A stretch of DNA of 64,000 nucleotides from Ilumatobacteraceae bacterium (GCA_040398525.1 JBBATY010000009.1:22416-86415); one strand, 5' to 3'. Shown: positions 1-18,700, counted from the stretch's first letter. The notes: generated by a model not told the origin, from the letters alone. Made by a program: numbers and translations.

Positions 1-1758
1 ACCGACCGAACGCACCCGATCGACCGGGCAGTCGGGCACGAGCCCCAGCACCAGCGCGTACAGCGGATCGATGTGGGCGCCGAACGCGCCGGCGAGCCGG
101 ATGTCGTCGAGCGTCTCGAGGCCGGCGTGGGCGACGAGCAGATCGATCCCGGCACGCAACGCGGCCTTGGCGAGCTGGATAGCTCGAACGTCGTTCTGGG
201 TGATCGACAGCTGCACGTCGCCGCGCTCGAAGACGACGTAGCGGAACGTCCGACCATCGGGCACGACCCTGGCGCAGTGCTTGGCCAGCCCGCCCTGGAT
301 CACGCCGTCGGTGTCGATGACCCCGGCGAGGTACATCTCGGCGACCACCTCGATGATGCCCGAACCGCAGATGCCGGAGATCTCGAGGTGCTCGACCGAC
401 TCGGCGAAGCCGGGGTCATCGCTCCACAGGTCGCTGCCGATCACCTTCACCCGCGCCTCGAGGGTCGTCCGGTCGATGCGGACCCTCTCGATGGCCCCCG
501 CCGTGGCGCGCTGGCCGCAGCTGAGCTGGGCGCCCTCGAATGCGGGGCCCGTCGGGCTCGACGCGGCGAACTGTTGCTTGCTGTCGCCGAGCACGATCTC
601 GGCGTTCGTGCCCACATCGACGACCAACTGGGTGGTCGCCGATCGATGGGGCCCCTCGGCCAGGACCACCGCCGCAGTGTCGGCACCGACGTGGCCGGCG
701 ATGCAGGGTCCGACGTAGGCGCGGGCACTGGGCAGCGGGAGATCGAGCTCGAGCGCCGGTAGCTGCACGGCCTCGGCAGTGGCCAACGTGAACGGCGCTT
801 GGCCGAGCGGGGTCGGGTCGATCCCGAGGAGCAGGTGATGCATGATCGGGTTGCCGACCAGGACGATCTCGAGCACCCTGTCGAGCCCGATGCCCGCCTC
901 GGCGGCCAGCTCGGTCACGAGGTCGGACAGCGCGTCGCGGACCGAGGTGGTGAGCTGCTCGTCGCCGCCCGGGTTCATCATCACGTACGAGACACGGCTC
1001 ATCAGGTCCTCGCCGAACCGGATCTGCGGGTTCATCCGTCCGCTCGATGCGAGGACCTCACCGGAGGCCAGGTCGCAGAGGTGCCCGGCAATGGTCGTGG
1101 AGCCGATGTCGACCGCGATGCCGGCGATCCGCTCGACGAATCCGGGCCAGACTGCAACGACCTGGCCCGGGCAGTTGGGGTCGTCGGAACGACGAACGGC
1201 CACCGTCGCTGCTCGGTCCTGACCGGCGAAGGCGCGGTGCACCTGCCGGAGCGCTGCAGGCGTCAGCCGATCGACGTGGCGCTGGTAGTCGGTGGCGAGT
1301 TGCTCGACGACGAGATCGCTCATGCTCGCTGCATCGCCGAGCACACTCGGCGCCAGTTCGAGGTAGGCGAGCGAGACCGCCGGGTCGAGGGTGACGTCGT
1401 CGAGAGCGAGCGCCTTGCGCACCACGGGGCGGTGCACCTGGCTCTCCGGCGGGACGTCGGCCACCACATCGCTCTGCACGAGCGCGCAACAGCCGAGGCG
1501 CCTCTCCGGTGCAAGTCCCTTGCGGTCGCGGTAGCGGGTCTCGGTCTCGGTGAAGGCGTTCAGCGATTCCGGTCCGACGTCGATCGCCCACTTCGCGAAC
1601 GAGCCGTCCTCGACGGTGACCTGGCACCGACCGCAGATCCCTCGACCACCGCAGACCGAGTCGAGATCGACCCCGAGGCCGCGCGCGGCATCGAGCAGGG
1701 ACGTGCCCTGCTCGACCTCGGCCGTGAGGCCGGACGGGGTGAAGACGACGCGCGGCAC
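1..1758 (-). CDS. Corrinoid reductive-activation protein (RACo/RamA-like: N-terminal 2Fe-2S ferredoxin plus ASKHA ATPase); C-terminus lies beyond the left window edge
   Basis: Absent from the ORF track because it has no stop inside the window. Manual reverse translation from GTG at 1758 (GGAGA just upstream) gives VPRVVFTPSGLTAEVEQGTSLLDAARGLGVDLDSVCGGRGICGRCQV (ferredoxin Cys motif). The same frame at nt 1140 reads FVERIAGIAVDIGSTTIAGH (ASKHA DIGTTT-type motif). At nt 120-1 it reads LETLDDIRLAGAFGAHIDPLYALVLGLVPDCPVDRVRSVG. The + strand ORFs 73..762 and 799..3078 are antisense shadows. Confidence 0.75.
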   Translation of the reverse strand, partial: MPRVVFTPSGLTAEVEQGTSLLDAARGLGVDLDSVCGGRGICGRCQVTVEDGSFAKWAIDVGPESLNAFTETETRYRDRKGLAPERRLGCCALVQSDVVADVPPESQVHRPVVRKALALDDVTLDPAVSLAYLELAPSVLGDAASMSDLVVEQLATDYQRHVDRLTPAALRQVHRAFAGQDRAATVAVRRSDDPNCPGQVVAVWPGFVERIAGIAVDIGSTTIAGHLCDLASGEVLASSGRMNPQIRFGEDLMSRVSYVMMNPGGDEQLTTSVRDALSDLVTELAAEAGIGLDRVLEIVLVGNPIMHHLLLGIDPTPLGQAPFTLATAEAVQLPALELDLPLPSARAYVGPCIAGHVGADTAAVVLAEGPHRSATTQLVVDVGTNAEIVLGDSKQQFAASSPTGPAFEGAQLSCGQRATAGAIERVRIDRTTLEARVKVIGSDLWSDDPGFAESVEHLEISGICGSGIIEVVAEMYLAGVIDTDGVIQGGLAKHCARVVPDGRTFRYVVFERGDVQLSITQNDVRAIQLAKAALRAGIDLLVAHAGLETLDDIRLAGAFGAHIDPLYALVLGLVPDCPVDRVRSVG

Positions 1759-1770
1759 GATGGTCTCCGG

Positions 1771-2670
1771 TCAGCCGCGACTGCGGCGCCTGCCCTCGCG
1801 CCCCTCGCGGGCACCAGCGGAGGCGTTGGGGTCGCGATTGGCCTTGATCCAGGCGAAGCAGTCGCGATCGTTGCCCATCAGCACGTCGGCGGCCATGATC
1901 GCCGACTTCACCTCCGGGTGCATCGGGTTCATGATCGCCGACGACATGCCGTTGGCCATCGCCATCGACAAGAACGTGCCGGTGATCTGGTTGCGGTTCG
2001 GCAACCCGAAGCTGACGTTCGATGCTCCGCAGGTCGTGTTCACACCGAGCTCGTCGACGAGCCGGCGCAGGAGGGCGAACACCTGGCGGCCTGCGGTGCC
2101 CATCGCCCCGATCGGCATCACGAGCGGGTCGACCACCACGTCGGACGCGGGGATCCCGTAGTCGGCAGCGCGATGGACAATCCGCTTGGCCACCTCGAAC
2201 CTGACATTGGGGTCCTCGGAGATGCCGGTCTCGTCGTTGCTGATCGCCACGACAGCGGCGCCGTACTTAGCGACGAGCGGCAACACCCGCTCCATCACCT
2301 CCTCTTCTCCGGTGACCGAGTTGACGAGCGGCTTGCCCTTGTACACGGCGAGCCCGGCCTCGAGGGCCTCGATGATCGACGAGTCGATCGAGAGCGGCAC
2401 ATCGGTGATCGACTGGACCAACTGGACCGCCCGAGCCAGCAGTGCGGGCTCGTCGGCCAGGGGGATGCCGGCGTTCACGTCGAGCATCTGCGCACCTGCC
2501 TCGACCTGGGCCAGGGCGTCGGCCTCGACACGGCTGAAGTCACCGTTCTTCATCTCCTCGGCGAGCAGCTTGCGCCCGGTCGGATTGATCCGCTCGCCGA
2601 TCATGACGAACGGCCGGTCGTGGCCGATCACCACTTCTTTGGTGGCGGAGCTGATGAGGGTGTCGGTCAT
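1771..2670 (-). CDS. Methyl-tetrahydrofolate:corrinoid methyltransferase (pterin-binding, MtgA/MtqA/MtrH-like)
   Basis: The ORF 1771..2991 has a junk N-terminal extension. The real start is the ATG at 2670 (MTDTLISSATKEVVIGHDRPFVMIGERINPTGRK...). The pterin-binding barrel pattern is recognisable (LDVNAG, SIDSS, NSV). The start overlaps the upstream stop (ATGA at 2667-2670). Confidence 0.85.
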   Translation of the reverse strand: MTDTLISSATKEVVIGHDRPFVMIGERINPTGRKLLAEEMKNGDFSRVEADALAQVEAGAQMLDVNAGIPLADEPALLARAVQLVQSITDVPLSIDSSIIEALEAGLAVYKGKPLVNSVTGEEEVMERVLPLVAKYGAAVVAISNDETGISEDPNVRFEVAKRIVHRAADYGIPASDVVVDPLVMPIGAMGTAGRQVFALLRRLVDELGVNTTCGASNVSFGLPNRNQITGTFLSMAMANGMSSAIMNPMHPEVKSAIMAADVLMGNDRDCFAWIKANRDPNASAGAREGREGRRRSRG

Positions 2671-3026
2671 GGCTGGCTGTCCTGGCTCTCGTTGGCCGCT
2701 GGGTCGCGGTCGGGATCGTTCGGGTCCCAGCCACCGTTGGTGACCAGGGTGTTGAGACGCTCGTTGGTGAACTCGCGCTCGATGTGCTCGGCGGTCGTGG
2801 TGACGCACTCGACGAGGTCGCCCACGACCGCGTGGGTGGTTCGCCGCCACTCGCCCACATACTCCTGGGCGGTCTTCTTGCCGGCCACCATCGCGGCGCG
2901 GTCGATCGCCTTCTGGAAACGGTGGGGGAGCATCACCTGGTGGCGCTCGCTGCCGAGGCGTCCGTTCACCTGGGCCGGGATGTCGCGCCACATGATGATG
3001 ACGAGCTCGTTGGAGTTGCGGGGCAT
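2667..3026 (-). CDS. Small conserved protein of the 'virulence factor' family that accompanies actinobacterial corrinoid methyltransferase loci
   Basis: Internal ATG at 3026 of ORF 2667..3149 gives MPRNSNELVIIMWRDIPAQVNGRLGSERHQVMLPHRFQKAIDRAAM.... It is packed between DUF1638 (stop 3028) and the pterin methyltransferase. The family label comes from memory of similar loci. Confidence 0.55.
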   Translation of the reverse strand: MPRNSNELVIIMWRDIPAQVNGRLGSERHQVMLPHRFQKAIDRAAMVAGKKTAQEYVGEWRRTTHAVVGDLVECVTTTAEHIEREFTNERLNTLVTNGGWDPNDPDRDPAANESQDSQP

Positions 3027-3027
3027 G

Positions 3028-3675
3028 TCAGACGGTCTCCTCGGTTCGGGTGCGGATCCCCACCTGCACGGCCGCTGAGAAGGGGCCGAGCCCCGTCCGG
3101 CGGACCTCGAAGGCAAGACCGAGTCGCTCGGCAGCGGCACGACCGGCATCGATCACGGCCTGGTCGCCGGACTGGGTGAGCAGCAGGACACGCCGGTAGT
3201 TGCCGAAGTACATGTCGCGTAGCTGCGGGTGACGGTCGAGGCCGAGCCCCTGCCAGACAAGCGCATCGAAGTGCTTGGCGAGGAAGTCGGTGAGGTAGAA
3301 GGTGCCGAGCTCGGAGTCGTGCTCGGCGTGGAACGCCTCCGAGCCGGTGAAGAACTCGTAGCAGTGGTCGCCGGGGAGCCGCACAGCGCTCGGCAGGTTG
3401 TCGATCAGACGATCGAAGCCTCCTCCGGTTCCGCAGTCGCCGTAGCCGAGCAGCACGGTGCGACCCTTGGCCACAGCATCGGTCTCGGCCAGCACAGCGT
3501 CGACTTCACCCGGAAGGCGTTCGGGGCGGTTGTGCAGCGCCGCGGGCAGGTAGCGCACCTCGACGGCGCGTTCGAGGCCGGCGGCCGCAAGCACGGCGCG
3601 CAGCTCGCTCACCAGGGCTCCGCAGGCGATGACGAGTGGACGCGTCTCGCTCGTGGGGATGGAGCGGTCCGACAT
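3028..3675 (-). CDS. DUF1638 domain protein (accessory protein of corrinoid methyltransferase clusters)
   Basis: Real start is the ATG at 3675 (MSDRSIPTSETRPLVIACGALVSELRAVL...GYGDCGTGG...) inside ORF 3028..4266. It lies 5 nt downstream of the corrinoid protein stop. Confidence 0.7.
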   Translation of the reverse strand: MSDRSIPTSETRPLVIACGALVSELRAVLAAAGLERAVEVRYLPAALHNRPERLPGEVDAVLAETDAVAKGRTVLLGYGDCGTGGGFDRLIDNLPSAVRLPGDHCYEFFTGSEAFHAEHDSELGTFYLTDFLAKHFDALVWQGLGLDRHPQLRDMYFGNYRRVLLLTQSGDQAVIDAGRAAAERLGLAFEVRRTGLGPFSAAVQVGIRTRTEETV

Positions 3676-3680
3676 CGGCC

Positions 3681-4400
3681 TCAGCGGACCGAGGGCCCGG
3701 GTGGCTCGGCCTTGCCGCGGCGGGCCTGGACGAACGACTTCGCCGTCTCGGCGGCGATCGCAGCATCGCGGCAGTAGGCGTCGGCCCCGATGGCGGCACC
3801 GAACTCCTCGTTCAACGGAGCGCCGCCGACGAGCACGATGTACTTCTCGCGCAGGCCGCGCTCGACCAGGGTGTCGATGACCACCTTCATGTACGGCATC
3901 GTGGTGGTGAGCAGCGCCGACATCCCGAGGATGTCCGGCTTGTGCTCGTCGAGCGCAGCGAGGAACTCGTCGGCGTCGGTGTTGATGCCGAGATCGATCA
4001 CCTCGAACCCGGCACCCTCCAGCATCATCGCCACCAGGTTCTTGCCGATGTCGTGGATGTCGCCCTTCACCGTGCCGATGACGACCTTGCCGATCGGCTC
4101 GGCGCCGGTCTCGGCGAGCAGTGGGCGGAGGATCTCCATACCCGACTTCATGGCATTGGCAGAGAGGAGGACCTCCGGCACGAACAGGATGCCGTCGCGG
4201 AAGTCGATGCCGACGATGCGCATTCCCTCGACGAGGGCATCGTTGAGCACCTTGTCGGGCGTCCATCCACGGTCGAGCAGGATCGTCGTCCCCTCGACGA
4301 TCTCGGGGCCGAGGCCGTCGTAGAGGTCCTCGTGCATCTGGGTGACCAGGTCCTCGTCGGACAGGCTGGAGAGGTCGAGATCGTCGCCTGCGTCGCTCAT
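3681..4400 (-). CDS. Cobalamin-binding corrinoid protein (MtgC/MtqC/MtbC-like)
   Basis: 239 aa. It has an N-terminal helical cap followed by a B12-binding Rossmann domain with the DxHxxG signature (GDIHDIGKN) and MSALLTTT/GGAP motifs. Confidence 0.9.
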   Translation of the reverse strand: MSDAGDDLDLSSLSDEDLVTQMHEDLYDGLGPEIVEGTTILLDRGWTPDKVLNDALVEGMRIVGIDFRDGILFVPEVLLSANAMKSGMEILRPLLAETGAEPIGKVVIGTVKGDIHDIGKNLVAMMLEGAGFEVIDLGINTDADEFLAALDEHKPDILGMSALLTTTMPYMKVVIDTLVERGLREKYIVLVGGAPLNEEFGAAIGADAYCRDAAIAAETAKSFVQARRGKAEPPGPSVR

Positions 4401-4426
4401 CTGTGCAGTCTCACTTCCGGTGCTGT

Positions 4427-4440
4427 TCCACGATGCGGAA
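4427..4440 (-). promoter_or_regulatory. Candidate operator (TTCC-N7-GGAA), 14-nt copy identical to one upstream of fhs
   Basis: The + strand reads tccacgatgcggaa at 4427-4440, 27-40 nt upstream of the corrinoid protein ATG (4400). The identical 14-mer occurs at 20462-20475. Including t4426, the element is TTCC-acgatgc-GGAA. Confidence 0.45.
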
Positions 4441-4500
4441 TCGTGTCCGTATGCCGAAACGCTAGCAGCTGTCGGACCGGAGAGCGAAGCGTTCGTCGGA

Positions 4501-5424
4501 TCAGGAGCCGGTGCGGATGGCCTGGATGTGGTCGTCGAAGCCGTCGCCCGTCATCAACGCCCGGCATCGCTCGAAGCGGCCCGTCGCGTAGGCCCAGAAA
4601 TCGTCGGCCGGGTTGCCGTTCGCGTGCTGGATGACGCCCCAGAGGGTCCACAGCAGATCGCACAGGGCCTTGTAGACGACCATCCGCCCGACCGCCGAGG
4701 CAGGAGGAGTCCGACCGAAGTACGCCTGCAGCAGCACGGCATCCTGTTCGGCATCGAAGCCACCTTCCACCGACAGATCACCGAGATCCCACATCGGGTC
4801 GTTGTTCCCCGAGTACTCGTAGTCGATGACGTACATCCGCTCACCCGTGTCGAGGAAGTTCTCGCACAGGGGGTCGCAATGCGACGGGACGAGCGGCACC
4901 GGGTGTGCCTCCAGCGCGGCGCGGGCCGATTCGGCCCGGGACTGCAACTCGTCGTATCCGACCGGGAGGGTGGCGCCCTTCGATGCGAGCAACCCCTTGT
5001 ACTCGTCGATCATCGCGAAGAGACGGAAGTCGACCGCGAACGGTGCTGCAGTGCGGTGGAGCCGGGCGAAGGCCTCGCCCGCTCGGGCGACACCACCGAG
5101 GTCGCGGAACCGTTCCGCGTCCATGGTGACCGAACCCTCGACGTAGCGGGTGACCATCAAGCCGTCCGCGGCGTCGAAGTGCACCAACGGCGCGTTGACA
5201 CCCGCCTCGGCTGCGCTCGCTGCAGCCACAGCTTCCGATGCTCGATCGATGTATTCGCTGGTACCGAGCCCGGGAAGCCTGAGCACCATCCGGCCATCGT
5301 CGGTGGCGACGAGGTAGTTGAGGTTGGTCAGCCCGGCGAGGCGAGTGGCGGTGGTGGGATCGCAGCCGCTCAGCAGGGGGACCCGTGCGAAGGCAGCCGC
5401 CAGTTGGTCGAGCTCGCTCGTCAT
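4501..5424 (-). CDS. Choline/ethanolamine kinase family phosphotransferase (APH fold)
   Basis: 307 aa. It carries the Brenner motif HCDPLCEN and a choline-kinase motif IDYEYSGNNDPMWDLGD. The start overlaps the upstream stop (ATGA at 5421-5424). Confidence 0.8.
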   Translation of the reverse strand: MTSELDQLAAAFARVPLLSGCDPTTATRLAGLTNLNYLVATDDGRMVLRLPGLGTSEYIDRASEAVAAASAAEAGVNAPLVHFDAADGLMVTRYVEGSVTMDAERFRDLGGVARAGEAFARLHRTAAPFAVDFRLFAMIDEYKGLLASKGATLPVGYDELQSRAESARAALEAHPVPLVPSHCDPLCENFLDTGERMYVIDYEYSGNNDPMWDLGDLSVEGGFDAEQDAVLLQAYFGRTPPASAVGRMVVYKALCDLLWTLWGVIQHANGNPADDFWAYATGRFERCRALMTGDGFDDHIQAIRTGS

Positions 5425-7862
5425 GCCCGCAGTTTCGCGCCGCTCGGGTCGTAGAGCGCGCCGTCGTGGCGACGAGCGGGAATCGCCTCGCCGTAGACCT
5501 CGATCACGAAGTCGGTGCGATCGGCGAGCTCGACGGGCACGTACCCATAGGCGATGGGCTTGCCGACGGTGTGCCCGAAGTTGGCGCTCGTGGTGAAGCC
5601 GACCACGCGCCCGTCGGCGATGATCGCCTCACCGCTCACGGGGAATGCCATCTCCTCGAGAGTGAACGTGCACAGCCGCCGGGCGACCCCGGCCTCGCGT
5701 TGCGCGACGAGCGCATCGCGCCCGCAGAAGTCGCCCTTGTCGAGGTCGACGCGCCACCCGAGACCGGCCTCCCACGGAGACGTGTCAGGGGTGACGTCGG
5801 TGCTCCAGTAGACGTAGCCCTTCTCCATGCGGAGCCGGTCGATCGCCCGGTAGCCGACGTCGGCGATGCCGTACGCCTGCCCGGCTTCCCGCAGCGTCTC
5901 GTAGACGTGCGCCGCATACTCGGTGGGGATGTGCAGCTCCCATCCGAGCTCACCGGTGTAGCCGACCCGGAGTGCGAACGCCGGTGCTGATGCGATGGTG
6001 AGCCAGCGTGCCCGCCCGTAGCGGAATGCCGCATTGGAGACGTCGTCCTCGCACACCGACTGCAGCACGTCGCGGGCGTGCGGCCCACATAGGTTGACGA
6101 CGGCATAGGCCGAGGTGACGTCGCGGACCGTCACCGAGCCATCGTCGGGCGACTGGCTGCGGATCCACCCCATGTCGTGGGCGCCGAATGCGGCGCCGGT
6201 CACCACGTACCACGTGTCCGGCGCCGTGCGGGCCATCGTGAGGTCGCACTCGATGCCGCCGCGCTCGTTGCACAGCTGCGTGTAGGTGACGGTGCCGATC
6301 GGTCGGTCCATGTCGGCCACCGACAGCCACTGCACTGCTGCGAGCGCCCCGGGCCCGGCGATCTCGAACTTCGCGAACGAGGTCTGATCGATGAGTGCGA
6401 CTCGTTCGCGCACCGCCGCGGCCTCGTCACCGACATGGTCGAACCAGTTGGGCGCCCCGAACGACGGACGATCGACGGCCTCGACCCCCTCCGGGGCGAA
6501 CCAGTTCGGACGCTCCCATCCACCGCGCGACCCGAACACCGCTCGCCTCGCGGCGAGGACGTCATGGAGTGGGCTGCGACGGACTCCGCGGCTGGTGACA
6601 TGCTCCGACCCCGGCGCCGCGAGCTTGTAGTGGTGGCCGTAGAGCTCGACCATGCGCGGGCCGATGAAGTGCTTCGTGGTGTGGTGGAACGAGAATCGAC
6701 GCACATCGAGCGGCCACAGGTCGAGCGACGGACGCCCGTCGAGGATCCACTCGGCCATCATCTTGCCCGCCCCGCCTCCAGCGGCGATCCCGTAGAGGAA
6801 GCCGGTGGCGAGGTAGAAGTTGTCGAGCTCGGGTGCCCGTCCCATCACGAAGTCGGCGTCGGCGGTGTAGGGGATCGGCCCGTTGATCAACGAACGGATA
6901 CCTGCCGTCTCGAGGACCGGCGTGCGCTTGACGGCGAGGTCGGCCAACTGGGCGAATCGGTCGTGGTTCGGGTCGAACAGCTGTCGCTGGAAGGGATGCG
7001 GGATCCCGTCGATCCCGAACGGCACGGTGTCGGGCTCGTAGCCCCCGACGAGCAGCCCGGGGCCGTCGGGCTTGTAGTACACGAGGTGGTCGGGGTCGCG
7101 CATCGTCGGCATGCGGCCCAGCTCGGCGGGCGTGTACTCGCTGATCGGGCCACTCAGCAGGTACTGGTGCTCGACCGCGACTGCGGGCACGCGGGCCCCC
7201 ACCATCTTGCCGACCTCCATGCCCCACATGCCGGCGGCGTTGACGACGATCTCGCACTCGATGTCGCCGCGATCGGTGTGGACGGTGGTCACGCGACGCC
7301 CGTCGACCGTCATCCGCTCGACCCTCGTGTGCTCGACCACGCGGGCGCCACGCTGGCGCGCCCCCTTGGCGATGGCCATCGTCACGCTCGCGGGATCGAT
7401 GTAGCCGTCGGTGGGCAGGAACGCTGCCGCGAGCACGTCGACCGTGCTCATCAGCGGGAACAGCTCCTGGGCGCGCTCGGGCGACACGATCTCCATGGGC
7501 AGGCCGAAGCTCTTCGCCATCGTCGCCAGGCGCCGCAGCTCCATCACCCGCTCGGGAGAGCACGCCAGGCGCAGGCTTCCCGTCTCGTGCCAGTCGACCG
7601 CCTGGCCGGTCTCGGCCTCGAGGCCGCGGTACATCTCGACGGACTGCTCGAGCATCCGGGTGGTGTTGCGGCTCGATCGGAGTTGACCGACCAGACCTGC
7701 GGCGTGCCAGGTCGCGCCGTCGGTCAGCTGGTGCTGCTCCAGCAGCACCACGTCGGTCTCACCCATCTTGGTGAGCCAGTAGGCCACGCTGCAGCCCAGG
7801 ATGCCGCCGCCGATCACGACGATGCGGGCACGGGTGGGGATGGTCGGATCGCTCATGGTCAT
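5421..7862 (-). CDS. FAD-dependent oxidoreductase fused to a GcvT aminomethyltransferase domain (dimethylglycine/sarcosine dehydrogenase family), paralogue 1
   Basis: Real start is the ATG at 7862 (MTMSDPTIPTRARIVVIGGGILGCSVAYWL...TWHAAGLVGQLRSS). The C-terminal half is a GcvT fold (GYTGELGWELH, RMEKGY). There is an ATGA overlap with the upstream paralogue at 7859-7862. Confidence 0.9.
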   Translation of the reverse strand: MTMSDPTIPTRARIVVIGGGILGCSVAYWLTKMGETDVVLLEQHQLTDGATWHAAGLVGQLRSSRNTTRMLEQSVEMYRGLEAETGQAVDWHETGSLRLACSPERVMELRRLATMAKSFGLPMEIVSPERAQELFPLMSTVDVLAAAFLPTDGYIDPASVTMAIAKGARQRGARVVEHTRVERMTVDGRRVTTVHTDRGDIECEIVVNAAGMWGMEVGKMVGARVPAVAVEHQYLLSGPISEYTPAELGRMPTMRDPDHLVYYKPDGPGLLVGGYEPDTVPFGIDGIPHPFQRQLFDPNHDRFAQLADLAVKRTPVLETAGIRSLINGPIPYTADADFVMGRAPELDNFYLATGFLYGIAAGGGAGKMMAEWILDGRPSLDLWPLDVRRFSFHHTTKHFIGPRMVELYGHHYKLAAPGSEHVTSRGVRRSPLHDVLAARRAVFGSRGGWERPNWFAPEGVEAVDRPSFGAPNWFDHVGDEAAAVRERVALIDQTSFAKFEIAGPGALAAVQWLSVADMDRPIGTVTYTQLCNERGGIECDLTMARTAPDTWYVVTGAAFGAHDMGWIRSQSPDDGSVTVRDVTSAYAVVNLCGPHARDVLQSVCEDDVSNAAFRYGRARWLTIASAPAFALRVGYTGELGWELHIPTEYAAHVYETLREAGQAYGIADVGYRAIDRLRMEKGYVYWSTDVTPDTSPWEAGLGWRVDLDKGDFCGRDALVAQREAGVARRLCTFTLEEMAFPVSGEAIIADGRVVGFTTSANFGHTVGKPIAYGYVPVELADRTDFVIEVYGEAIPARRHDGALYDPSGAKLRA

Positions 7863-10339
7863 GCCTTCACGCGTGCATTGGTGGGGTCGTAGAGGGGGGA
7901 GAGGGTCGCCTCGGCGGGCACCCGTTCGGTGGCGACCTCGAGCTCGTACGACCCGGCGAGCACCCAGTCGGCGGTGACGCCGGCGTGGTTGCGCACGTAG
8001 CCCATGCCGATGGAGCGTTCCACCGTGTAGCCGTAGCCGCCGCTGGTGAGCCACCCGCAGCGATCACCGTCGCGGTAGATCGTCTCCCTGCCGAGCAGCA
8101 CGACCCCTGGGTCCACCGTGAAGGTGGTGAGCACCTTGCGCACGCCCTGCTCGCGCTGGGCCACGATCGCCTCGCGCCCGATGAAGTCGATCCCGCTGCG
8201 CAGCTTGACGGCCCAGCCGAGGCCTGCCTCGATCGGCGTGTGGTCGGGCCCGATGTCCGAGCCCCACGCCCGGTACCCCTTCTCGAGGCGGCAGCTCTCG
8301 ATCGCCCGGTACCCGGCGTTGACGAGGCCGTGGGGAGCGCCGGCATCCATCAGCCGGTCGTACACCCGGGTCGCGTACTCGACCGGGAGATGGAGCTCCC
8401 AGCCGAGCTCGCCCATGTAGGTGACGCGCAACGCCCGCACCGGGCATCCGGCGACGCCGATGGTCTGCACCGTGCCGAACGGGAACGCCTCATTGGAGAC
8501 GTCAGCACGCGTCACGTGCTGGAGGATGCTGCGGGACTCGGGACCCATCAGCGTGAGGGTCGACCACGCCGAGGTGACGTCGAAGGCTTCGACGTGGGCA
8601 TCGGCTGGCAGGTTGCGCTCGATCCAGTCGAGGTCGTGGGTGGCGAACCCCGTGCCCGTGACGAGGTAGAACTCGTCGTGACCCACACGGGCGACGGTGA
8701 GGTCGCACTGAATGCCGCCGCGCTCGTCGAGCAGTTGCGTATAGGTCAGCGATCCGACGGGCTTGCGCACGTTGTTCGCACACAGTCGGTCGAGGGCTGC
8801 GCCAGCATCGGCACCCTTGATCGCGTACTTCGCGAACGACGTCTGATCGACGAGCACTGCAGCTTCGCGGCAGGCGCGGTGCTCGCGCCCGACTGCCGCG
8901 AACCAGTTCTGGCGCCCATAGGTGTAGACGTCGTGGTCGGCCTCGCCCTGCGTCGGGTCGTGGTACCAGTTCGGCCGTTCCCATCCGAGCTTCTCGCCGA
9001 ACACCGCACCGGCCGAACGCAGACGTTCGAACAGTGGCGAGACCCGCGCCGGTCGTCCGCTGTGGTGCTCCTCGAACGGCCACGCCATCGTGTAGTGCTT
9101 GGCGTAGGCCTCGAGCGTGCGGCTGCGCACCCAGTCGACATCGCGATGTGGCCGTCCGAAGCGCCGCAGGTCGACCACCCAGAGGTCGAACGGGGGCCGT
9201 CCGTCGTGCACCCACTCGGCAAGCGCCTGCCCCGCACCGCCACCCGCGGCGATGCCGAAGGCGTTGAAGCCTGCACCGACGAACAGGTTCGGCAGCTCGG
9301 GAGCTTCCCCGAGGATGAAGTTCCCGTCCGGCGTGAAGCTCTCCGGGCCGTTGATCAGGGTTCGGATGCCCACCTCCGCCAGCGCCGGCACACGGCCGAT
9401 GGCGAGCTCCATGATCGGGGCGAAGTGGTCGACATCGGCGTCGAGCAACTGGAACTGGAACGGTCGCGGGATCCCGTCGACCGCCCACGGGATCGGGTTC
9501 GGCTCGTACCCGCCCATGACGAGGCCGCCGACCTCCTCCTTGTAGTAGGTCAACCGGTCGGGGTCGCGCAGCGTGGGCAACGACCGCGGAACCTCCGGCG
9601 TGAACGGTTCGGTGATGACGTACTGGTGCTCGACCGAGACGAGCGGGACGCTCACGCCCACCGTCGCTGCCAGCTCGCGGGTCCACTGCCCGGCGCACAG
9701 CACCACCTTCTCGCACTCGATGCGGCCGCGATCGGTGACGACAGCACGGATCCGGCCGTCGACCACCTCGATCGAGAGGACCTCGGTGTGCTCGCACAGC
9801 GTCGCCCCGGCCATCCGGGCGCCACGGGCGAGGGCCATGGTGATGTCGCTCGGGCTGGCCTGGCCATCGGTGGGCAGGAATGCTGCTCCGACCAGGTCGT
9901 CGATCTCCATCAGCGGCCAGAGCTCCTGTGCCTCACGTGGTGAGAGCAGGTGCATCTCGAGCCCGAAGCTCTTCGCCGTCGTGGCTTGGCGCCGAACCTC
10001 CGTCCACCGCTCGTCATTGCAGGCCAGGCGCAGGCCGCCGTTCATCTTCCAACCCGTCGCCTGTCCCGTCTCGGCCTCGAGCCGTCGGTACAGGTCGACG
10101 CTGTTGCCGAGCAACTGGGTGATGTTCGCACTGGTGCGCAGCTGCCCGACGAGACCGGCAGCGTGGAAGGTCGAGCCCGAGGTGAGCTGATGCTTCTCGA
10201 CGAGCACGGTGTCGGTCCAGCCGAGCTTGGCGAGGTGGTAGGCGGTCGAGCACCCCACGATGCCGCCACCCACGACCACGGCCCGGGCCGATGTGGGGAA
10301 GTCGCTCATGGCTGCGACCGTAGTCGTTGGTTCCAACAT
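7859..10339 (-). CDS. FAD-dependent oxidoreductase fused to a GcvT domain (dimethylglycine/sarcosine dehydrogenase family), paralogue 2
   Basis: ARAVVVGGGIVGCSTAYHL...STFHAAGLVGQLRTS...YMGELGWELH...RLEKGY. The start is taken at the ATG at 10339 (MLEPTTTVAAMSDF). The ATG at 10309 is an alternative, and neither has a strong SD. Confidence 0.85.
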   Translation of the reverse strand: MLEPTTTVAAMSDFPTSARAVVVGGGIVGCSTAYHLAKLGWTDTVLVEKHQLTSGSTFHAAGLVGQLRTSANITQLLGNSVDLYRRLEAETGQATGWKMNGGLRLACNDERWTEVRRQATTAKSFGLEMHLLSPREAQELWPLMEIDDLVGAAFLPTDGQASPSDITMALARGARMAGATLCEHTEVLSIEVVDGRIRAVVTDRGRIECEKVVLCAGQWTRELAATVGVSVPLVSVEHQYVITEPFTPEVPRSLPTLRDPDRLTYYKEEVGGLVMGGYEPNPIPWAVDGIPRPFQFQLLDADVDHFAPIMELAIGRVPALAEVGIRTLINGPESFTPDGNFILGEAPELPNLFVGAGFNAFGIAAGGGAGQALAEWVHDGRPPFDLWVVDLRRFGRPHRDVDWVRSRTLEAYAKHYTMAWPFEEHHSGRPARVSPLFERLRSAGAVFGEKLGWERPNWYHDPTQGEADHDVYTYGRQNWFAAVGREHRACREAAVLVDQTSFAKYAIKGADAGAALDRLCANNVRKPVGSLTYTQLLDERGGIQCDLTVARVGHDEFYLVTGTGFATHDLDWIERNLPADAHVEAFDVTSAWSTLTLMGPESRSILQHVTRADVSNEAFPFGTVQTIGVAGCPVRALRVTYMGELGWELHLPVEYATRVYDRLMDAGAPHGLVNAGYRAIESCRLEKGYRAWGSDIGPDHTPIEAGLGWAVKLRSGIDFIGREAIVAQREQGVRKVLTTFTVDPGVVLLGRETIYRDGDRCGWLTSGGYGYTVERSIGMGYVRNHAGVTADWVLAGSYELEVATERVPAEATLSPLYDPTNARVKA

Positions 10340-10387
10340 GATCGGACAGTCCTGGCGTTTTCTGGAGGGAGGCGCAAAGATGACGCG

Positions 10388-11239
10388 ATGGGGACCGTCG
10401 AGCACCGGCTCGAGCACGACGTGCTGAGCGTCGTGTCGCTGCGCGGCTCGATGGGGGTACGTGACCTGGCTGTGCTCCTCGGCGTGTCCGAGCAGACGGT
10501 TCGCCGGGTCGTGCGCCCGATGGTGGCCCGCGGCCAGGTGGCCAAGGTCCACGGCGCGGTGGTCGCCACGCAGCGACCTGGCGAGCAGCCATTCCTCGCT
10601 CGGATGAACGTGGCTCGCCACGCCAAGGTCGCCATCGCAGCCGAGGTGGCCAAGCTGGTCGCAGACGGCGATTCGGTAGTGCTCGACACCGGCTCGACAA
10701 CTGGCTACATCGCCCAGGCCCTGCGGCAACACCGCGAGCTCACCGTGGTGACCAACTCTGCGTTCATCGCCACGAGCTTGGCCACCATTCCTGGGAACCG
10801 TGTGTACATCGCAGGAACCGAACTACGCAGCCACGACGGCGCGTCGTTCGATCGGCGTGCGTTCGAGGTGGTGCAGTCGATGCGCGTGCGGTGGGCCGTG
10901 CTGTCGGCCTCGGCGGTCGACGCAAGGCGCGGCTTCATGGTGCACGACCGCGCCGAGGCCGAGATGTCGGCGGCGATGGCGGCCATCGCCGACACACGGA
11001 TCATGGCGGTCGATCGCTCGAAGTGGGGACGCTGCGCGCTCGTGGCTGTCGAGGGGCTCCGAGCCGGCGACATCGTCGTCAGCGACGGCCCACCTGCGAC
11101 GGACTTCGCCTCGCTCCTCGAAACGATGCGGCTCGTCGACGCCTCGCCCGGGTCGATCGAGCGCGCCGTCTATGCTCGACCAACCGAGCAGGCGGGGCTC
11201 GGATTGGTTGCGGGGTCGGGGGAGGAGGACCACTGGTGA
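10388..11239 (+). CDS. DeoR family transcriptional regulator
   Basis: ATG at 10388 ([42 protein letters not shown]...). It has an N-terminal wHTH and a DeoR C-terminal sugar-phosphate-isomerase-like domain ([15 protein letters not shown]). GGAGGGAGG lies upstream. It is divergent from the DMGDH genes. Confidence 0.85.
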
Positions 11240-12258
11240 GCGAGCCCATGATCTCGGTGCGCAACCTGTGGAAGGTGTACGGACCGCGGCCTGAGCGCAT
11301 CGTCGGCTCGGCCGAGGCCGATCTGCCACGCAAGGAACTCGAGGCGCGAACCGGCAACGTCGTGGCGATGCGCGACATCGACCTCGACGTCGCCCCCGGT
11401 GAGGTGTTCGTGGTGATGGGCCTCTCCGGCAGCGGCAAGAGCACCCTGGTGCGCTGCCTGACGCGCCTCATCGAGCCGACGGCCGGGACCGTTCGCATCG
11501 GCGACACCGACGTGACCGCCGCAAGCGGCGACGCTCTGCTCGAGATCCGACGCCACAAGGTGAGCATGGTCTTCCAGCACTTCGGACTCCTTCCCCACCG
11601 CAGCCTGGTCGACAACGTGGCATTCGGCCTCGAGGTGCGTGGGGCCGACAAGGCCGAGCGGCGGGCTCGGGCCCTCGCCCAACTCGAGCTCGTGGGCTTG
11701 GCGGGGATGGGCGACTACCGGCCGCACCAGTTGAGCGGGGGCCAGCAGCAGCGGGTGGGCTTGGCTCGTGCACTGGCCACCGGGCCGGATGTGCTGCTCT
11801 TCGACGAGCCGTTCTCGGCGCTCGACCCACTCATCCGTCGCGAGATGCAGGACGAGGTCATCCGCCTGCGTCGAGAGGTGAACACCACGATGGTGTTCAT
11901 CACCCACGACCTCTCCGAAGCCCTGCGAATCGGAGACCGGATCGCGATCATGCGTGATGGCCGCTTCGTGCAGGTCGGCACGCCCGCAGAGGTTGTGCTC
12001 GAACCGGCCGACGATTACGTGCGCAACTTCGTTCGCGATGTGCCGCGATCGCACGTCGTGCCCGTGGGAGCCGTGATGGAACCGCTCGGTGACGGCCCGT
12101 TCGGTAGCGATGTGCCGGCCTCGGCCAAGGTGCGCGATGTGGTGGGTGAGGTCGCGCACCACGACCGGCCGATACGGGTGCTCGATGCCGCGGGTCAACC
12201 CGCCGGCCAGGTGACGCGCGCAGCGGTGTTGGCCGTCATCGCCGGAGAGGACCTGTGA
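11236..12258 (+). CDS. proV: Glycine betaine/proline betaine ABC transporter ATP-binding protein (ProV/OpuAA-like)
   Basis: GTG at 11236 is preceded by GGAGGAGGA and overlaps the DeoR stop (GTGA). Walker A is GLSGSGKST, the signature is LSGGQQQRV and Walker B is [11 protein letters not shown]. It has a C-terminal CBS-like tail. Confidence 0.85.
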
Positions 12259-12259
12259 G

Positions 12260-14200
12260 GTGACCGCGGCGACGCTGACCCCGTCACCGACGGTCGGGTC
12301 GGTGGGAGCGCGTCGGTGGCTGGTTCCGGTGGGGGTCTTCGCTGCGCTGTTCGTCGTCGCGTTTGCGGCGTCGCCCGATGTGCCCGATTGGCTCGACATC
12401 GGCTTCCAGAAATGGGTCCGCGACCGCTACCTCTGGACAGTCGAGAACAGCGACAACTGGATCTTCTCCTACATCTTCGAACCGATCGGTTCAGCGATCA
12501 ACTGGCTGGTCCGACAGGCGATCGACCTCCTCTCCTGGTTGAGGTGGACGGGAGTGCTGGCCATTGCCGGCGCCATCGCGTGGCGCGGCGGCGGGTGGCG
12601 CGCCTGTGCAGCAACCAGCGCTGCACTGCTCGGTGTGGGCGTGCTGGGCGTCTGGGACCCGGCCATGGTGACCCTGGCCGTGATGCTCGTCGCCGTCACC
12701 ATCGCGCTCGCTATCGGCATCCCGCTCGGAGTGTGGAGTGCTCGCTCGGCACGGGTCGAGAGCATCCTGCGACCCATCCTCGACACCGCCCAAGTGATGC
12801 CGGCATTCGTCTACCTGATCCCGCTGGTCGTGCTCTTCGGCATCAAGTACCCGCCGGCAGTCCTGGCAACGGTGATCTACGCCGTGCCCCCAGCCGTGCG
12901 CCTCACCAGCCACGGCCTGCGCAGCGTGCCCGTGGTGAGCAACGAGGTGGCAGTGTCGTTCGGCTGCACCTCGTGGCAGCAGCTGGTGAAGGTACAGGTC
13001 CCACTTGCCCGGCGAGCCATCCTGCTCGGCCTCAACCAGGTGATCATGATGGCGTTCGGAATCGTGGTCATCGCCTCGGTCCTCGGCGTCGACGACCTCG
13101 GCGGCCTGGTGCTGAAGGGGTTGCAGAAGAACGACGTCGGAGCCGCCTTCGTTCCCGGTCTGGCCATCGTGCTGCTCGCCATCGCGTTCGACCGTATGTC
13201 GACGGGGGAGCGGCCGGATGGGTCGACCGTGACGCGGCGCGACACGCTCATCGCCGCCGGCGTGGTCATCGCGGCCATCGCAGCTGCCTACGTCTTCAGC
13301 CAGCAGACGTTTCCGAGCTCGTTGACCGTCGACATCTCCGACCGCGTCAATCAGGTCGTCGACTGGTTCCAGGATGCGCTCGTCGACATCACCGAGACGA
13401 TCAACCGGGTCATCGTCACCGATCTGCTCGAGCCGATGCGCAGGTTCTTGACCGCCACCCCGTGGCTCGTGGTCGTGGTGGCGGTCGCTGCCATCGCCTA
13501 CGCCAGCCGGGGATGGCGCCTCGCCCTCGGCTGCGCCGCCTGCCTCGTCGCCATCGGCGCGTTGGGCGACATTCCCGGCGGTGAGGGGGGCAGGACGTCG
13601 TTGTGGGACCTGGCGATGAACACGCTCAGCCAGGTGCTGCTCGCCATCGTGATCAGCGTCCTCATCGCGCTGCCGCTCGGCGTCTGGGCCGGGAGGTCGC
13701 CACGGGTGGATGCAGCGTTGCGACCCATCCTCGACGCGGCGCAGGTGATGCCACAGTTCGTCTACCTGATCCCCGTGCTGTTCCTGTTCGACCCAGGCCG
13801 TGGGGCCGGTGTCGTGGCGTCGGTGATCTACGCCGTGCCTCCGTGCATCCGGTTGACGAGCCTCGGGCTGCGAGAGGTTCCGGTGGCGCCTCGCGAAGCA
13901 GCGGTGTCGTTCGGTGCCACGCCCCGCCAGGAACTGTTCAAGGTCCAGTTGCCCCTGGCGTTCCGCTCGATCATGCTGGGAATCAACCAGAGCATCCTGA
14001 TGGTGCTCGCCACGGTCATCATCGCTGCGCTCATCGGCGCTGGCGCACTCGGCCTCGTGTCGTACGAGGCGTTCGCCAAACCGATCCTGAAGATCGGCTC
14101 CGGCGCGGCTGGTGGCGTGGCTATCGTTCTGCTTGCCGTGGTGCTCGACCGCATCACCCAGGCATGGGGAACACCACGCCGGACCCGTCCGGCGCCGTGA
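12260..14200 (+). CDS. proW: Fused double permease of the glycine betaine/proline ABC transporter (ProW-ProW tandem)
   Basis: 646 aa with two BPD-type transmembrane domains. Each carries the same conserved block (ILDTAQVMPAFVYLIP...VIYAVPPAVRLTSHGL and ILDAAQVMPQFVYLIP...VIYAVPPCIRLTSLGL). Confidence 0.85.
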   Translation: MTAATLTPSPTVGSVGARRWLVPVGVFAALFVVAFAASPDVPDWLDIGFQKWVRDRYLWTVENSDNWIFSYIFEPIGSAINWLVRQAIDLLSWLRWTGVLAIAGAIAWRGGGWRACAATSAALLGVGVLGVWDPAMVTLAVMLVAVTIALAIGIPLGVWSARSARVESILRPILDTAQVMPAFVYLIPLVVLFGIKYPPAVLATVIYAVPPAVRLTSHGLRSVPVVSNEVAVSFGCTSWQQLVKVQVPLARRAILLGLNQVIMMAFGIVVIASVLGVDDLGGLVLKGLQKNDVGAAFVPGLAIVLLAIAFDRMSTGERPDGSTVTRRDTLIAAGVVIAAIAAAYVFSQQTFPSSLTVDISDRVNQVVDWFQDALVDITETINRVIVTDLLEPMRRFLTATPWLVVVVAVAAIAYASRGWRLALGCAACLVAIGALGDIPGGEGGRTSLWDLAMNTLSQVLLAIVISVLIALPLGVWAGRSPRVDAALRPILDAAQVMPQFVYLIPVLFLFDPGRGAGVVASVIYAVPPCIRLTSLGLREVPVAPREAAVSFGATPRQELFKVQLPLAFRSIMLGINQSILMVLATVIIAALIGAGALGLVSYEAFAKPILKIGSGAAGGVAIVLLAVVLDRITQAWGTPRRTRPAP

Positions 14201-14228
14201 CTCGCACAACACCAACAGGGGGAACCGA

Positions 14229-15242
14229 ATGAAGACAACACCACGCAGGACTCGGCTGCTGGCAGGCGGGCTCGCCGTCGCCGCGCTGCTCGCCGCCTGT
14301 GGCGGCGACGACGAGGCAGCCACCACCACAGCAGCACCCGACACCACTGCCGACTCCGGTGGCGGCGGAGAAGCTGGGGCGGGGATCGTCCTGGCGGCGA
14401 ACCCTTGGACCGGTTCGGCTGTGAACGCGTACGTGGCCAAGGTCGCGCTCGAAGCAGCAGGCACGCCGGTCGAGATCCTCGACATCGACGAGAACTCCAC
14501 CTGGGTGGGCCTCGACGACGGCAGCATCGATGCCGTGCTCGAGGTCTGGCCCTCGGGTCACGCCGCCGACTACGAGACCTACATCACCGGCAAGGGCTCG
14601 GTGGTCGACCTCGGCCTGCTCGGCCCGCAGGCGAAGATCGGCTGGTACGTGCCCACGTTCGTCGTCGACGAGAACCCGGCCCTGGCGACGTGGGAGGGCT
14701 TCAAGGACGCTGAGCTGGCGAAGCTGTTCGCAACCGACGAGTCCGGCGCCGACCTCGGCCAGTTCCTGATGGGCGACCCGAGCTACGTCACCTTCGACGA
14801 GCAGATCATCGCCAACCTCGAGCTGCCGCTCAAGTACGTCGTCGCCGGTTCCGAGACGGCCCTCATCACGGCCATCCAGAAGGCCGTCGACGAAAAGACC
14901 CCGCTGCTGCTGCAGTTCTGGCAGCCCCACTGGCTCCAGAGCAAGGTCGATCTCACCGAGGTGAAACTCCCCGAGGTCACCGAGGCCTGCGCGGCGTCGG
15001 CCGCTGCCGGCGACGGCGGGTACGTGTGCGACTACCCGGTCGACCAGCTCTACAAGGCCGGATCGGCCAAGCTCGAGGCCAAGAACAAGATGGCCTTCGA
15101 CTTCCTGAAGAAGTTCCAATTGACGACCGATCAGCAGAACGAGATCGCTGCGATGATCGACAGTGACGGCATGACGCCGTTGGATGCGGCCACGAAGTGG
15201 GTCGAGGCCAACGCTGATGTCGTCAAGGGGTGGATGGGCTGA
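14229..15242 (+). CDS. proX: Glycine betaine ABC transporter substrate-binding lipoprotein (ProX/OpuAC-like)
   Basis: ATG at 14229 (MKTTPRRTRLLAGGLAVAALLAACGG, a lipobox). An OpuAC-type fold pattern is present (ANPWTGS, EVWPSGH, GWYVP, FWQPHW). Confidence 0.85.
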   Translation: MKTTPRRTRLLAGGLAVAALLAACGGDDEAATTTAAPDTTADSGGGGEAGAGIVLAANPWTGSAVNAYVAKVALEAAGTPVEILDIDENSTWVGLDDGSIDAVLEVWPSGHAADYETYITGKGSVVDLGLLGPQAKIGWYVPTFVVDENPALATWEGFKDAELAKLFATDESGADLGQFLMGDPSYVTFDEQIIANLELPLKYVVAGSETALITAIQKAVDEKTPLLLQFWQPHWLQSKVDLTEVKLPEVTEACAASAAAGDGGYVCDYPVDQLYKAGSAKLEAKNKMAFDFLKKFQLTTDQQNEIAAMIDSDGMTPLDAATKWVEANADVVKGWMG

Positions 15243-17836: not shown

Positions 17837-18700
17837 TCAGGCCGGGAAGGCTCCTTGCATGCGAGCCGCAGCGAGGGTGTTCTCCATCAGACACGCGATG
17901 GTCATCGGTCCGGTGCCGCCGGGCATCGGCGTGATCCATCCGGCGATCTCCTTCACGGCGTCGAAGTCGACGTCGCCCACCAGACCTGCCTCGGTGCGGC
18001 TGATGCCCACGTCGATGACGGCAGCGCCCGGTTTCACGTGCTGAGCAGTGATCATGCGGGCCTGGCCAGCACAGGCGACGATGATGTCGGCTGCGCTGCA
18101 GATCTCGATCATGTCGGCGGCGGGGGTGCGCGAGTGCGCAAGGGTGACCGTGGCATCGCAACCCTTGCGGCCGAGCAGCAGCACTTGCGGCAGTCCGGTG
18201 AGCGTGGAACGACCCACCACCACCGCACGCTTGCCGGCAGTGGGCACGTGGTAGCGCTCGAGGAGGCGCATGACGCCGAGGGGAGTGCAGCCGACGTGGC
18301 CCGACTGGCCGCGCACCAAACGGCCCATCGAGCGCTCGGTCAGACCATCGACGTCCTTCTCGAACGGGATCTGGTCGAGGACCAGCTCCATGTCGAGGCC
18401 GTCGGGCAGGGGGAACTGGCACAGGATGCCGTGCACGCTCGGATCAGCGGCCAATGCCGCAATGGTGTCGTTCACCTGTGCCTGGCTGGCCGTGGCCGGC
18501 AGGTCGGTGTGACGCGACTGGATGCCCGCCTCGCCAGCCTTCTTCTGCTTGGAGCGGATATAGCTCTGGCTCGGCTTGTCGTCGCCGACCAGCACCGTGG
18601 CCAGGCACACCGGCGGGTTGCCGGCGGCGTCGATGGTGGCGCGGATCTCGGCGAGAATGGTGTCGCGGACGACGTTGCCGTCGATGACGATGGCCGTCAC
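17837..18700 (-). CDS. folD: Bifunctional 5,10-methylene-THF dehydrogenase / methenyl-THF cyclohydrolase
   Basis: GTG at 18700 (VTAIVIDGNVVRD...VLVGDDKPSQSYIRSKQK...GRSTLTGLP...PMPGGTGPMT). The start overlaps the fhs stop (GTGA at 18697-18700). Confidence 0.9.
   Translation of the reverse strand: MTAIVIDGNVVRDTILAEIRATIDAAGNPPVCLATVLVGDDKPSQSYIRSKQKKAGEAGIQSRHTDLPATASQAQVNDTIAALAADPSVHGILCQFPLPDGLDMELVLDQIPFEKDVDGLTERSMGRLVRGQSGHVGCTPLGVMRLLERYHVPTAGKRAVVVGRSTLTGLPQVLLLGRKGCDATVTLAHSRTPAADMIEICSAADIIVACAGQARMITAQHVKPGAAVIDVGISRTEAGLVGDVDFDAVKEIAGWITPMPGGTGPMTIACLMENTLAAARMQGAFPA

Follow-up and report, generated by a model that had tools for sequence, protein, structure and literature searches.

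A putative seven-gene cassette for aerobic, cobalamin-dependent betaine demethylation in Ilumatobacteraceae-like Acidimicrobiia

INTRODUCTION

Among aerobic bacteria, the corrinoid-dependent methyl-transfer system MtgBCD has been described in Ruegeria pomeroyi, where glycine betaine induces MtgB, MtgC, MtgD, a RamA-like activase, a DUF1638 protein and MetF2, and where knock-outs of mtgC and mtgD do not grow on glycine betaine and are auxotrophic for methionine (Mausz et al., PNAS 2025, PMC12478193). The same work reports that the mtg genes are dispersed in R. pomeroyi and often arranged in operons in other aerobes (the mtg cluster of Sinorhizobium meliloti is cited there), that up to seven MttB paralogues can accompany one MtgC, and that Actinomycetota account for ∼5% of the mtgC reads from the ocean. 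In Phaeobacter inhibens and R. pomeroyi, MtgC, MtgD, the RamA-like activase and DUF1638 are also the parts of a split MetH and have a dual function (PMC12478193, PMC5764234). Genetics in P. inhibens implicate the DUF1638 family in the reactivation of B12 (Price et al. 2018, PMC5764234), and DUF1638 was linked to reactivation also by Mausz et al. (PMC12478193). Here we compare with these systems a cluster of five genes, encoding an MtgC-type corrinoid protein and four partners, that occupies the first 4,400 nucleotides of a 64,000-nucleotide stretch of DNA from an Ilumatobacteraceae bacterium (GCA_040398525.1, JBBATY010000009.1:22416-86415; the whole stretch is called the window below).

The same three-component chemistry scheme is found in two anaerobic glycine betaine methyltransferase systems, MtgABC of Desulfitobacterium hafniense and MtgB/MtgC of Methanolobus vulcani. 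In Eubacterium limosum, a strict anaerobe and acetogen, one corrinoid protein (MtqC) and one tetrahydrofolate (THF) methyltransferase (MtqA) serve several MttB-family proteins (MtcB, MtpB, and MtyB) that differ in their quaternary amine substrates, and a choline-kinase-type gene adjoins the corrinoid module in MthKBCA. A preliminary description of the window saw in the five genes a complete module that lacked a substrate methyltransferase in its own operon and proposed it as the best candidate in the window for a new physiological system, the corrinoid route in an aerobic setting being poorly described. This last view is outdated, as the same parts have been demonstrated in R. pomeroyi by genetics and proteomics (PMC12478193). 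We show below that the locus shares most of its parts with the aerobic systems, and that the genes directly beyond the edge of the window change how the module is to be understood.

RESULTS

Positions 1-4400 of the window probably hold the promoter-proximal five-sevenths of a cassette with the order mtgC, DUF1638, PF13769, mtgD, RACo, mttB, and a gene resembling that for methylenetetrahydrofolate reductase (MTHFR), which we regard as metF2-like. At the left end of the window, the G+C content is ∼68-70%, and all the genes called real there by third-position GC and Pfam matches lie on the minus strand. The first of the five encodes an MtgC-type corrinoid protein of 239 amino acids (3681-4400), which combines a cap domain with a Rossmann B12 domain (B12-binding_2 PF02607 and B12-binding PF02310, 101.5 and 55.6 bits) and carries the motifs GDIHDIGKN (with DIHDIG as the DxHxxG element), SAL, and GG. 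It is followed by a DUF1638 protein of 215 amino acids (3028-3675; PF07796, 89.9 bits), a 119-amino-acid protein of the Virulence_fact family PF13769 (2667-3026; 67 bits in Pfam), and a pterin-binding TIM barrel of 299 amino acids (1771-2670; PF00809 Pterin_bind, 99.4 bits). The last of these is an MtgD-type methylcorrinoid:THF methyltransferase, scoring well above the cut-off of the NCBIfam model for methyl-THF:corrinoid methyltransferases (NF005719, 358 versus 259 bits). The fifth gene (1-1758) encodes a RACo/RamA-like, ATP-dependent reductive activase of corrinoid proteins. It opens with an N-terminal [2Fe-2S] ferredoxin domain (Pfam Fer2), which is followed by a linker (RACo_linker), a middle part (Raco_middle), and an ASKHA domain (RACo_C_ter); the NCBIfam models AcsV and RamA score under their cut-offs on this protein. 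Going from mtgC to RACo, neighboring genes are first separated by 5 nt and by 1 nt, then overlap by 4 nt, and are finally separated by 12 nt. The profile searches in Pfam and NCBIfam thus bear out all five family assignments of the preliminary description, together with its account of co-directional genes that overlap or lie at most 12 nt apart, and we likewise uphold its general classification of the module as a unit for corrinoid-dependent methyl transfer, of the quaternary-amine:THF type.

The module is not complete, as had been claimed, since the left edge of the window cuts through RACo. Only the first 586 codons of the gene lie in the window, and the RACo_C_ter match, which covers model positions 2-201 of 261, runs off at position 1. 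In two related contigs (L088 and L002), the full protein has 688 amino acids, so that ∼102 residues are cut from the window copy. Because of this truncation, neither the completeness of the module nor the absence of an MttB gene can be read from the window.

We therefore turned to relatives, that is, contigs retrieved through an exact match to the pterin-binding protein of the window and, separately, through its DUF1638 protein. The nearest of them, L088, is 99.26% identical to window positions 1-4070 at the nucleotide level (30 mismatches, no gaps) and reaches window position 1. Past this point, it encodes the remainder of RACo, an MttB of 519 amino acids—its ATG overlapping the stop codon of RACo (ATGA)—and the MTHFR-like protein. 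An MttB-family gene (494-519 amino acids as called) directly follows RACo at six out of six places with an identical MtgD, and the MTHFR-like gene follows MttB at all of those that reach that far; the longer contigs then show a convergent gene of the major facilitator superfamily (MFS), the alpha and beta genes of an electron transfer flavoprotein (ETF) just past the cassette, and another DAO-GCV_T gene. Five of the contigs with identical MtgD (L001-L005) were compared as DNA and are ∼97% identical to the window. An exact 32-mer taken from window positions 11-126, where the window and five related contigs do not differ, had no match among the GTDB representative genomes. The open reading frame of this cis MttB, a non-pyrrolysine member of the MttB superfamily (PF06253) that lies outside the window and was read in the relatives, is uninterrupted and has no in-frame amber codon. 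The preliminary description had held that the operon contains no substrate methyltransferase. A cognate MttB gene in just this place, which that description itself had named as the finding that would remove the orphan aspect, lies immediately left of the window edge in L088, at 99.3% identity, and stands next to RACo also in the ∼97% identical contigs and in ten out of ten more distant genomes that run past RACo; the apparent orphan status of the module is therefore an artifact of where the window ends.

To place the cassette in a wider context, we aligned homologues of the kinase encoded upstream of mtgC and scanned 80 genome loci, taken with 10-kb flanks, with the window proteins. Corrinoid genes were found downstream of the kinase gene in 17 Acidimicrobiia loci, which come from Ilumatobacteraceae, 'Acidimicrobiaceae,' and unclassified Actinomycetota metagenome-assembled genomes (MAGs). 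The order mtgC, DUF1638, PF13769, mtgD, RACo, MttB is conserved in all ten Acidimicrobiia loci that run past RACo, and in all eight that reach further the MTHFR-like gene comes after MttB. Eight sister loci (L006, L008, L010, L016, L019, L020, L041, and L043) are without all seven genes; in these, the kinase gene is followed by the convergent MFS gene, and the five loci that are long enough show the ETF genes farther out. The closest genomes to the window are Ilumatobacteraceae/Acidimicrobiia MAGs, which agrees with the aerobic-looking actinobacterial host that had been proposed.

The space between the kinase and MFS genes can be compared directly between otherwise syntenic Ilumatobacteraceae loci that hold the cassette (L011, L013, L015, L022, and L024) and loci that do not (L006, L008, L016, L019, and L020). 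This presence or absence of the whole block at one site indicates a self-contained seven-gene cassette in Ilumatobacteraceae, and it fits a unit that carries its own substrate methyltransferase. The 74% identity of MtgC to the S. meliloti protein suggests, in turn, lateral transfer of such genes between phyla.

Judged by its sequences, the system of the window is of the aerobic MtgBCD type and not of the D. hafniense type. Identities to the products of the S. meliloti mtg cluster amount to 74% for MtgC, 63% for MtgD, 61% for MttB, 52% for RACo, 47% for DUF1638, and 38% for PF13769, and MtgD is 73% identical to its homologue in Azoarcus sp. KH32C. PDB entry 4yyc represents the S. meliloti MttB, with identity over the reconstructed residues 10-524, and is also the best PDB match of the cis MttB (671 bits). 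Like the aerobic systems of R. pomeroyi, P. inhibens, and S. meliloti, the locus combines a non-pyrrolysine MttB, MtgC, MtgD, DUF1638, and an activase resembling RamA/RACo, along with a putative MTHFR paralogue, in a setting of flavin demethylases, THF-linked C1 oxidation, and several MttB per MtgC. It differs from them in its host, an actinobacterium (Acidimicrobiia, Ilumatobacteraceae-like), and in that no MtgE was found nearby: with S. meliloti Bmt/MtgE as the query, tblastn returned no MtgE/Bhmt homologue from the window or from the sequences flanking the cassette. Whereas the genes are dispersed in R. pomeroyi, they form one tight seven-gene cassette here, and whereas MTHFR has a MetV-like partner in S. 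meliloti and Azoarcus, we find a short, 288-amino-acid MTHFR-like protein without one.

Two further observations concern these reference loci. The S. meliloti cluster was found on a 3.7-Mb record (L086, CP090106.1) that is labeled as plasmid pSymB and appears to be a mislabeled chromosome. Plasmid pAZKH of the betaproteobacterium Azoarcus sp. KH32C (L093, 163231-181506) carries genes for a corrinoid protein, DUF1638, PF13769, a MetV-like protein, MTHFR, a pterin-binding protein, and RACo, inside an island for glycine betaine transport with a dimethylglycine dehydrogenase (DMGDH), ETF, and PurU; no MttB was detected by tblastn within 9 kb of this module. Neither a layout with MttB in cis nor one without it would be unusual.

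The likeness to the anaerobe systems lies in the chemistry scheme, in the MttB fold, with the cis MttB being 45% identical to D. hafniense MtgB (416 bits to PDB 2qne), and in the residues Y97, R312, and H348 discussed below. In contrast, the MtgC of the window scores under the curated cut-offs of the two NCBIfam models built for MtgC of the anaerobe type (NF047995 and NF047996, 207.8 versus 370 and 171.3 versus 310 bits), and genes for DUF1638 and PF13769, present here, are not reported for the anaerobe mtg clusters in the papers cited. The arrangement in which one corrinoid protein and one THF methyltransferase could serve several MttB proteins recalls MtqC/MtqA of E. limosum, which, unlike the presumed host of the window, is a strict anaerobe. 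The kinase gene next to the corrinoid module likewise recalls MthKBCA, but here it is tied to a flavin demethylase gene and is kept when the cassette is absent.

Three dispersed MttB paralogues, counted by the preliminary description, are indeed present in the window: paralogue 2 at 22653-24239 on the minus strand (non-pyrrolysine type; Pfam MTTB 751 bits, also found by tblastn; 56% identical to the cis MttB), paralogue 3 at 43741-45357 on the minus strand (Pfam MTTB 638 bits), and paralogue 4 at 55340-56809 on the plus strand (tblastn, 42% identity to the cis MttB). Paralogue 4 matches PDB entries 2qne, 9yce, and 4yyc equally well, at ∼372 bits each. In D. hafniense MtgB, glycine betaine is contacted by Y97, R312, H348, and F356 (Picking et al., JBC 2026, PMC13080624), and we aligned the four MttB paralogues with the sequences of 9yce and 4yyc, rebuilt from PDB alignments. 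The equivalents of Y97, R312, and H348 are shared by the cis MttB and paralogue 2, and the position of Y97 is taken by alanine in paralogue 3 and by glycine in paralogue 4. The conserved arginine and histidine point to acidic quaternary amines as the substrates of all four paralogues. For the cis MttB, glycine betaine is the most likely substrate, as suggested by its orthology and by the context of an OpuA-type importer and of DMGDH-like, Sox-like, and ETF proteins.

The neighbors of paralogues 2 and 3 point to other betaines as substrates. Paralogue 2 adjoins a 687-amino-acid flavoprotein with the domains Oxidored_FMN and Pyr_redox_2 (20526-22589, minus strand), directly upstream of the genes for formate-THF ligase and FolD. 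This domain pair also occurs in demethylases of the N-methylproline and di-/trimethylamine dehydrogenase types, which would suggest a second betaine-type substrate. Paralogue 3 lies in a cluster at 40023-46595 with a Rieske oxygenase, a DAO-GCV_T demethylase, and an MR/MLE enzyme, flanked by an ABC transporter of the peptide/opine type. We take this cluster to resemble those for the catabolism of proline betaine or hydroxyproline betaine, and oxygenase and corrinoid demethylases for one class of substrates may coexist in it.

Among the less familiar parts of the cassette, the PF13769 gene occupies the same position in every Acidimicrobiia cassette. It is found directly upstream of the MetV-like/MTHFR pair in S. 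meliloti and Azoarcus sp. KH32C, adjoining DUF1638 in the latter, and in the alphaproteobacterium Terrarubrum flagellatum it is fused to the N terminus of a Fer2-RACo protein (L087, 9995-12277, plasmid NZ_CP091854.1), in an operon of B12-binding protein, DUF1638, and PF13769::RACo. This fusion supports a role of PF13769 together with the activase. We conclude that PF13769 is probably a conserved accessory of the module, linked to RACo-dependent reactivation, and that the family name 'Virulence_fact' is probably misleading. Its AF2 model (pLDDT 81) gave no usable fold match (the best Foldseek hit in the PDB had E = 0.14 and a TM below 0.3), no PDB sequence was matched in a profile search, and a literature search for the family returned no papers. 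In the DUF1638 family, Cys18, Cys81, Cys105, His48, and His104 are invariant in our alignment (A3), and we speculate that these residues could bind a metal. The AF2 model of the DUF1638 protein (pLDDT 85) shows only a weak likeness to generic two-lobed alpha/beta folds (E ≥ 0.017, TM ≤ 0.41), and phmmer found nothing significant among PDB sequences.

The cassette is preceded by a gene for a kinase of the choline-kinase/APH family (4501-5424, minus strand; Pfam APH and Choline_kinase), 100 nt upstream of mtgC, whose best NCBIfam match, GntI kinase, is under its cut-off. The kinase gene is translationally coupled, through an overlap of 4 nt, to the nearer of two tandem genes for DAO-FAO_M-GCV_T flavoenzymes of the dimethylglycine/sarcosine-dehydrogenase type (5421-7856 and 7859-10309, minus strand; Pfam), which are 50% identical to each other as proteins and would be THF-dependent oxidative N-demethylases. 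In most of the 80 loci of the census (L006-L085), the kinase gene follows a DMGDH-like gene, with or without the corrinoid cassette; the pair spans Acidimicrobiia, Dongiaceae (including the cultured Dongia mobilis, D. sedimenti, and D. deserti), Rhodospirillaceae, and Binatia, and often stands beside a DeoR regulator and an OpuA-type importer, as in Dongia. The kinase gene and the flavin demethylase gene upstream of it are thus a conserved unit separate from the cassette. We had considered the kinase as a dedicated partner of the corrinoid module and rejected this candidate on the census, in which the kinase is kept without the cassette.

The same neighbors are seen in the window, where a DeoR regulator (10388-11239, plus strand; Pfam) is divergent from the tandem flavoenzymes and is followed by an OpuA-type betaine/choline ABC importer on the same strand, consisting of an ATPase (11248-12258), a permease (12260-14200), and an OpuAC binding protein (∼14112-15242), all by Pfam. 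Further on, FolD (17837-18700) and a formate-THF ligase (FTHFS, 18697-20394), both on the minus strand and identified by Pfam, provide for the THF-linked oxidation of C1 units downstream of methyl-THF and methylene-THF. A sarcosine-oxidase-like cluster on the minus strand comprises SoxD (30182-30418), a SoxB-like DAO protein (30427-31635), an unassigned open reading frame of 126 amino acids (31632-32012), and a SoxA-like protein with Fer2_4 and GCV_T domains (32044-34218). Together with a GMC oxidoreductase and Rieske oxygenases, which the island also holds, these genes corroborate the earlier placement of the module within an island of O2- and flavin-dependent demethylases. At the level of DNA signals, the search was negative: Rfam returned no cobalamin riboswitch or other family in the whole window at gathering thresholds or in the gap between the kinase gene and mtgC at E ≤ 1, and a scan of positions 1-11500 for promoters and terminators gave nothing beyond chance.

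DISCUSSION

In this study, we compared a corrinoid methyl-transfer module of an actinobacterium with its described relatives and found that it continues, in its closest relatives, into genes for an MttB and an MTHFR-like protein. The gene content and order, this continuation of the operon, the orthology to the S. meliloti cluster, and the preservation of three out of four glycine betaine contact residues are observed. We infer which substrate is used, which way the flux runs, what DUF1638 and PF13769 do, that the three other MttB paralogues use the module in trans, and, as a possibility, that the cassette has a second role in methionine synthesis. In the mechanism we propose, the MttB-family enzyme would draw a methyl group from a quaternary amine with a carboxyl group—glycine betaine brought in by the neighboring OpuA-type transporter being the most likely one—and load it onto MtgC in its Co(I) form, from which MtgD would transfer it to THF. 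The MTHFR-like enzyme would then oxidize methyl-THF to methylene-THF, and the C1 unit would reach formate through the FolD and the formate-THF ligase of the window. Whenever MtgC is oxidized to Co(II), RACo would reduce it again using ATP and its [2Fe-2S] domain, probably with help from the DUF1638 and PF13769 proteins. The flavin-dependent DMGDH-like and the Sox-like enzymes of the island would strip off methyl groups two and three.

Several points weigh against this interpretation. The left flank of the window itself was deduced from relatives, the nearest of which is 99.3% and not 100% identical to it, and the orthology of the cis MttB was judged against the S. meliloti protein. The position of F356 is occupied by glycine in all four MttB proteins and in S. 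meliloti 4yyc. A tryptophan four residues upstream might serve as a replacement; nonetheless, with this contact lost, the specificity of the cis MttB for glycine betaine remains putative. The corrinoid protein is missed by the glycine betaine-specific, anaerobe-type MtgC models. The seventh gene product is a further point: the protein has a weak match to the Pfam family MTHFR (PF02219, 33.7 bits versus a cut-off of 24), falls far under the cut-offs of the NCBIfam MTHFR models, and does not resemble MTHFR of S. meliloti at a threshold of E ≤ 1e-5. Finally, the betaine-demethylase function that we propose for the cassette in the window organism is deduced from sequence.

Turning to other explanations, the cassette could be a mainly anabolic, split methionine synthase in which MtgD runs in the direction from methyl-THF to Co(I) and a homocysteine-binding MtgE is encoded elsewhere in the genome. 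MtgC, MtgD, the RamA-like activase, and DUF1638 are exactly the split MetH parts of P. inhibens and R. pomeroyi, but the cassette brings along its own MttB and MTHFR-like genes, lies inside an island for the catabolism of methylated amines, is dispensable in sister genomes, and is without an MtgE/Bhmt match in the window or in its own flanks. We therefore consider a mainly anabolic function unlikely, while a dual role in catabolism and methionine synthesis is possible.

We regard as quite unlikely a route through phosphocholine, in which the kinase would phosphorylate choline, the cis MttB would demethylate phosphocholine in the manner of MthK/MthB of E. limosum, and the tandem DMGDH-like enzymes would demethylate phospho-dimethyl- and phospho-monomethyl-ethanolamine, making the ten co-directional genes, from the first DMGDH-like gene to the MTHFR-like gene, a pathway from choline to phosphoethanolamine in an aerobe. 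This idea draws on the kinase gene with its Choline_kinase/APH matches, which lies on the same strand 100 nt upstream of mtgC, with no terminator-like site, promoter-like site, or riboswitch found between them, on the MthK/MthB precedent (PMC12155760), and on the acid-binding R312 and H348 kept in the cis MttB. However, the conserved neighbor of the kinase gene is the DMGDH-like gene it overlaps, across several phyla, and the kinase occurs without the cassette in the eight sister loci as well as in all proteobacterial loci. The S. meliloti cluster, with its MttB at 61% identity to the cis protein, has no kinase nearby, and the cis MttB keeps Y97, whereas MthB, MtcB, MtpB, and MtyB lack a conserved aromatic pair (PMC13080624). 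That the best NCBIfam match of the kinase is a sub-cut-off GntI kinase also argues against this route. We would give equally little credence to a hybrid, ten-gene aerobic pathway of freshwater or soil Acidimicrobiia that combines choline phosphorylation, the cobalamin-dependent removal of the quaternary methyl group, and two flavin/THF-dependent demethylations of the phospho-amino-alcohol, with PF13769 and DUF1638 as hitherto unrecognized subunits that enable RACo to work in an oxygen-exposed cell.

That MtgC, MtgD, and RACo form an orphan module served solely in trans by the three dispersed paralogues is barely credible: although no MttB is visible within positions 1-4400, the Azoarcus plasmid pAZKH shows a layout without a nearby MttB, and the genes are dispersed in R. 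pomeroyi (PMC12478193), an MttB gene directly follows RACo in L088, in the ∼97% identical contigs, and in ten out of ten related genomes that reach far enough.

For a cassette with its own MttB, as we propose, additional use in trans is a separate matter. The 64-kb window holds a single copy each of MtgC, MtgD, and RACo, which makes it plausible that the three paralogues use this set in trans. Such sharing would match what has been proposed for R. pomeroyi and would have a precedent in MtqC/MtqA of E. limosum.

Our results do not overturn the current understanding of corrinoid-dependent demethylation. Rather, they would extend aerobic, cobalamin-dependent betaine demethylation from marine Proteobacteria to widespread, uncultured Acidimicrobiia near Ilumatobacteraceae, in a version whose seven genes are packed closely together and come and go as one block. 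The comparison also yields two leads that reach beyond this locus. On one hand, PF13769 may be an accessory of the RACo/DUF1638 reactivation unit, with a fusion to RACo in at least one genome. On the other hand, the kinase/DMGDH-like pair recurs across several phyla. For the actinobacteria that carry it, the cassette would imply a demand for cobalamin and a route for the turnover of osmolytes.

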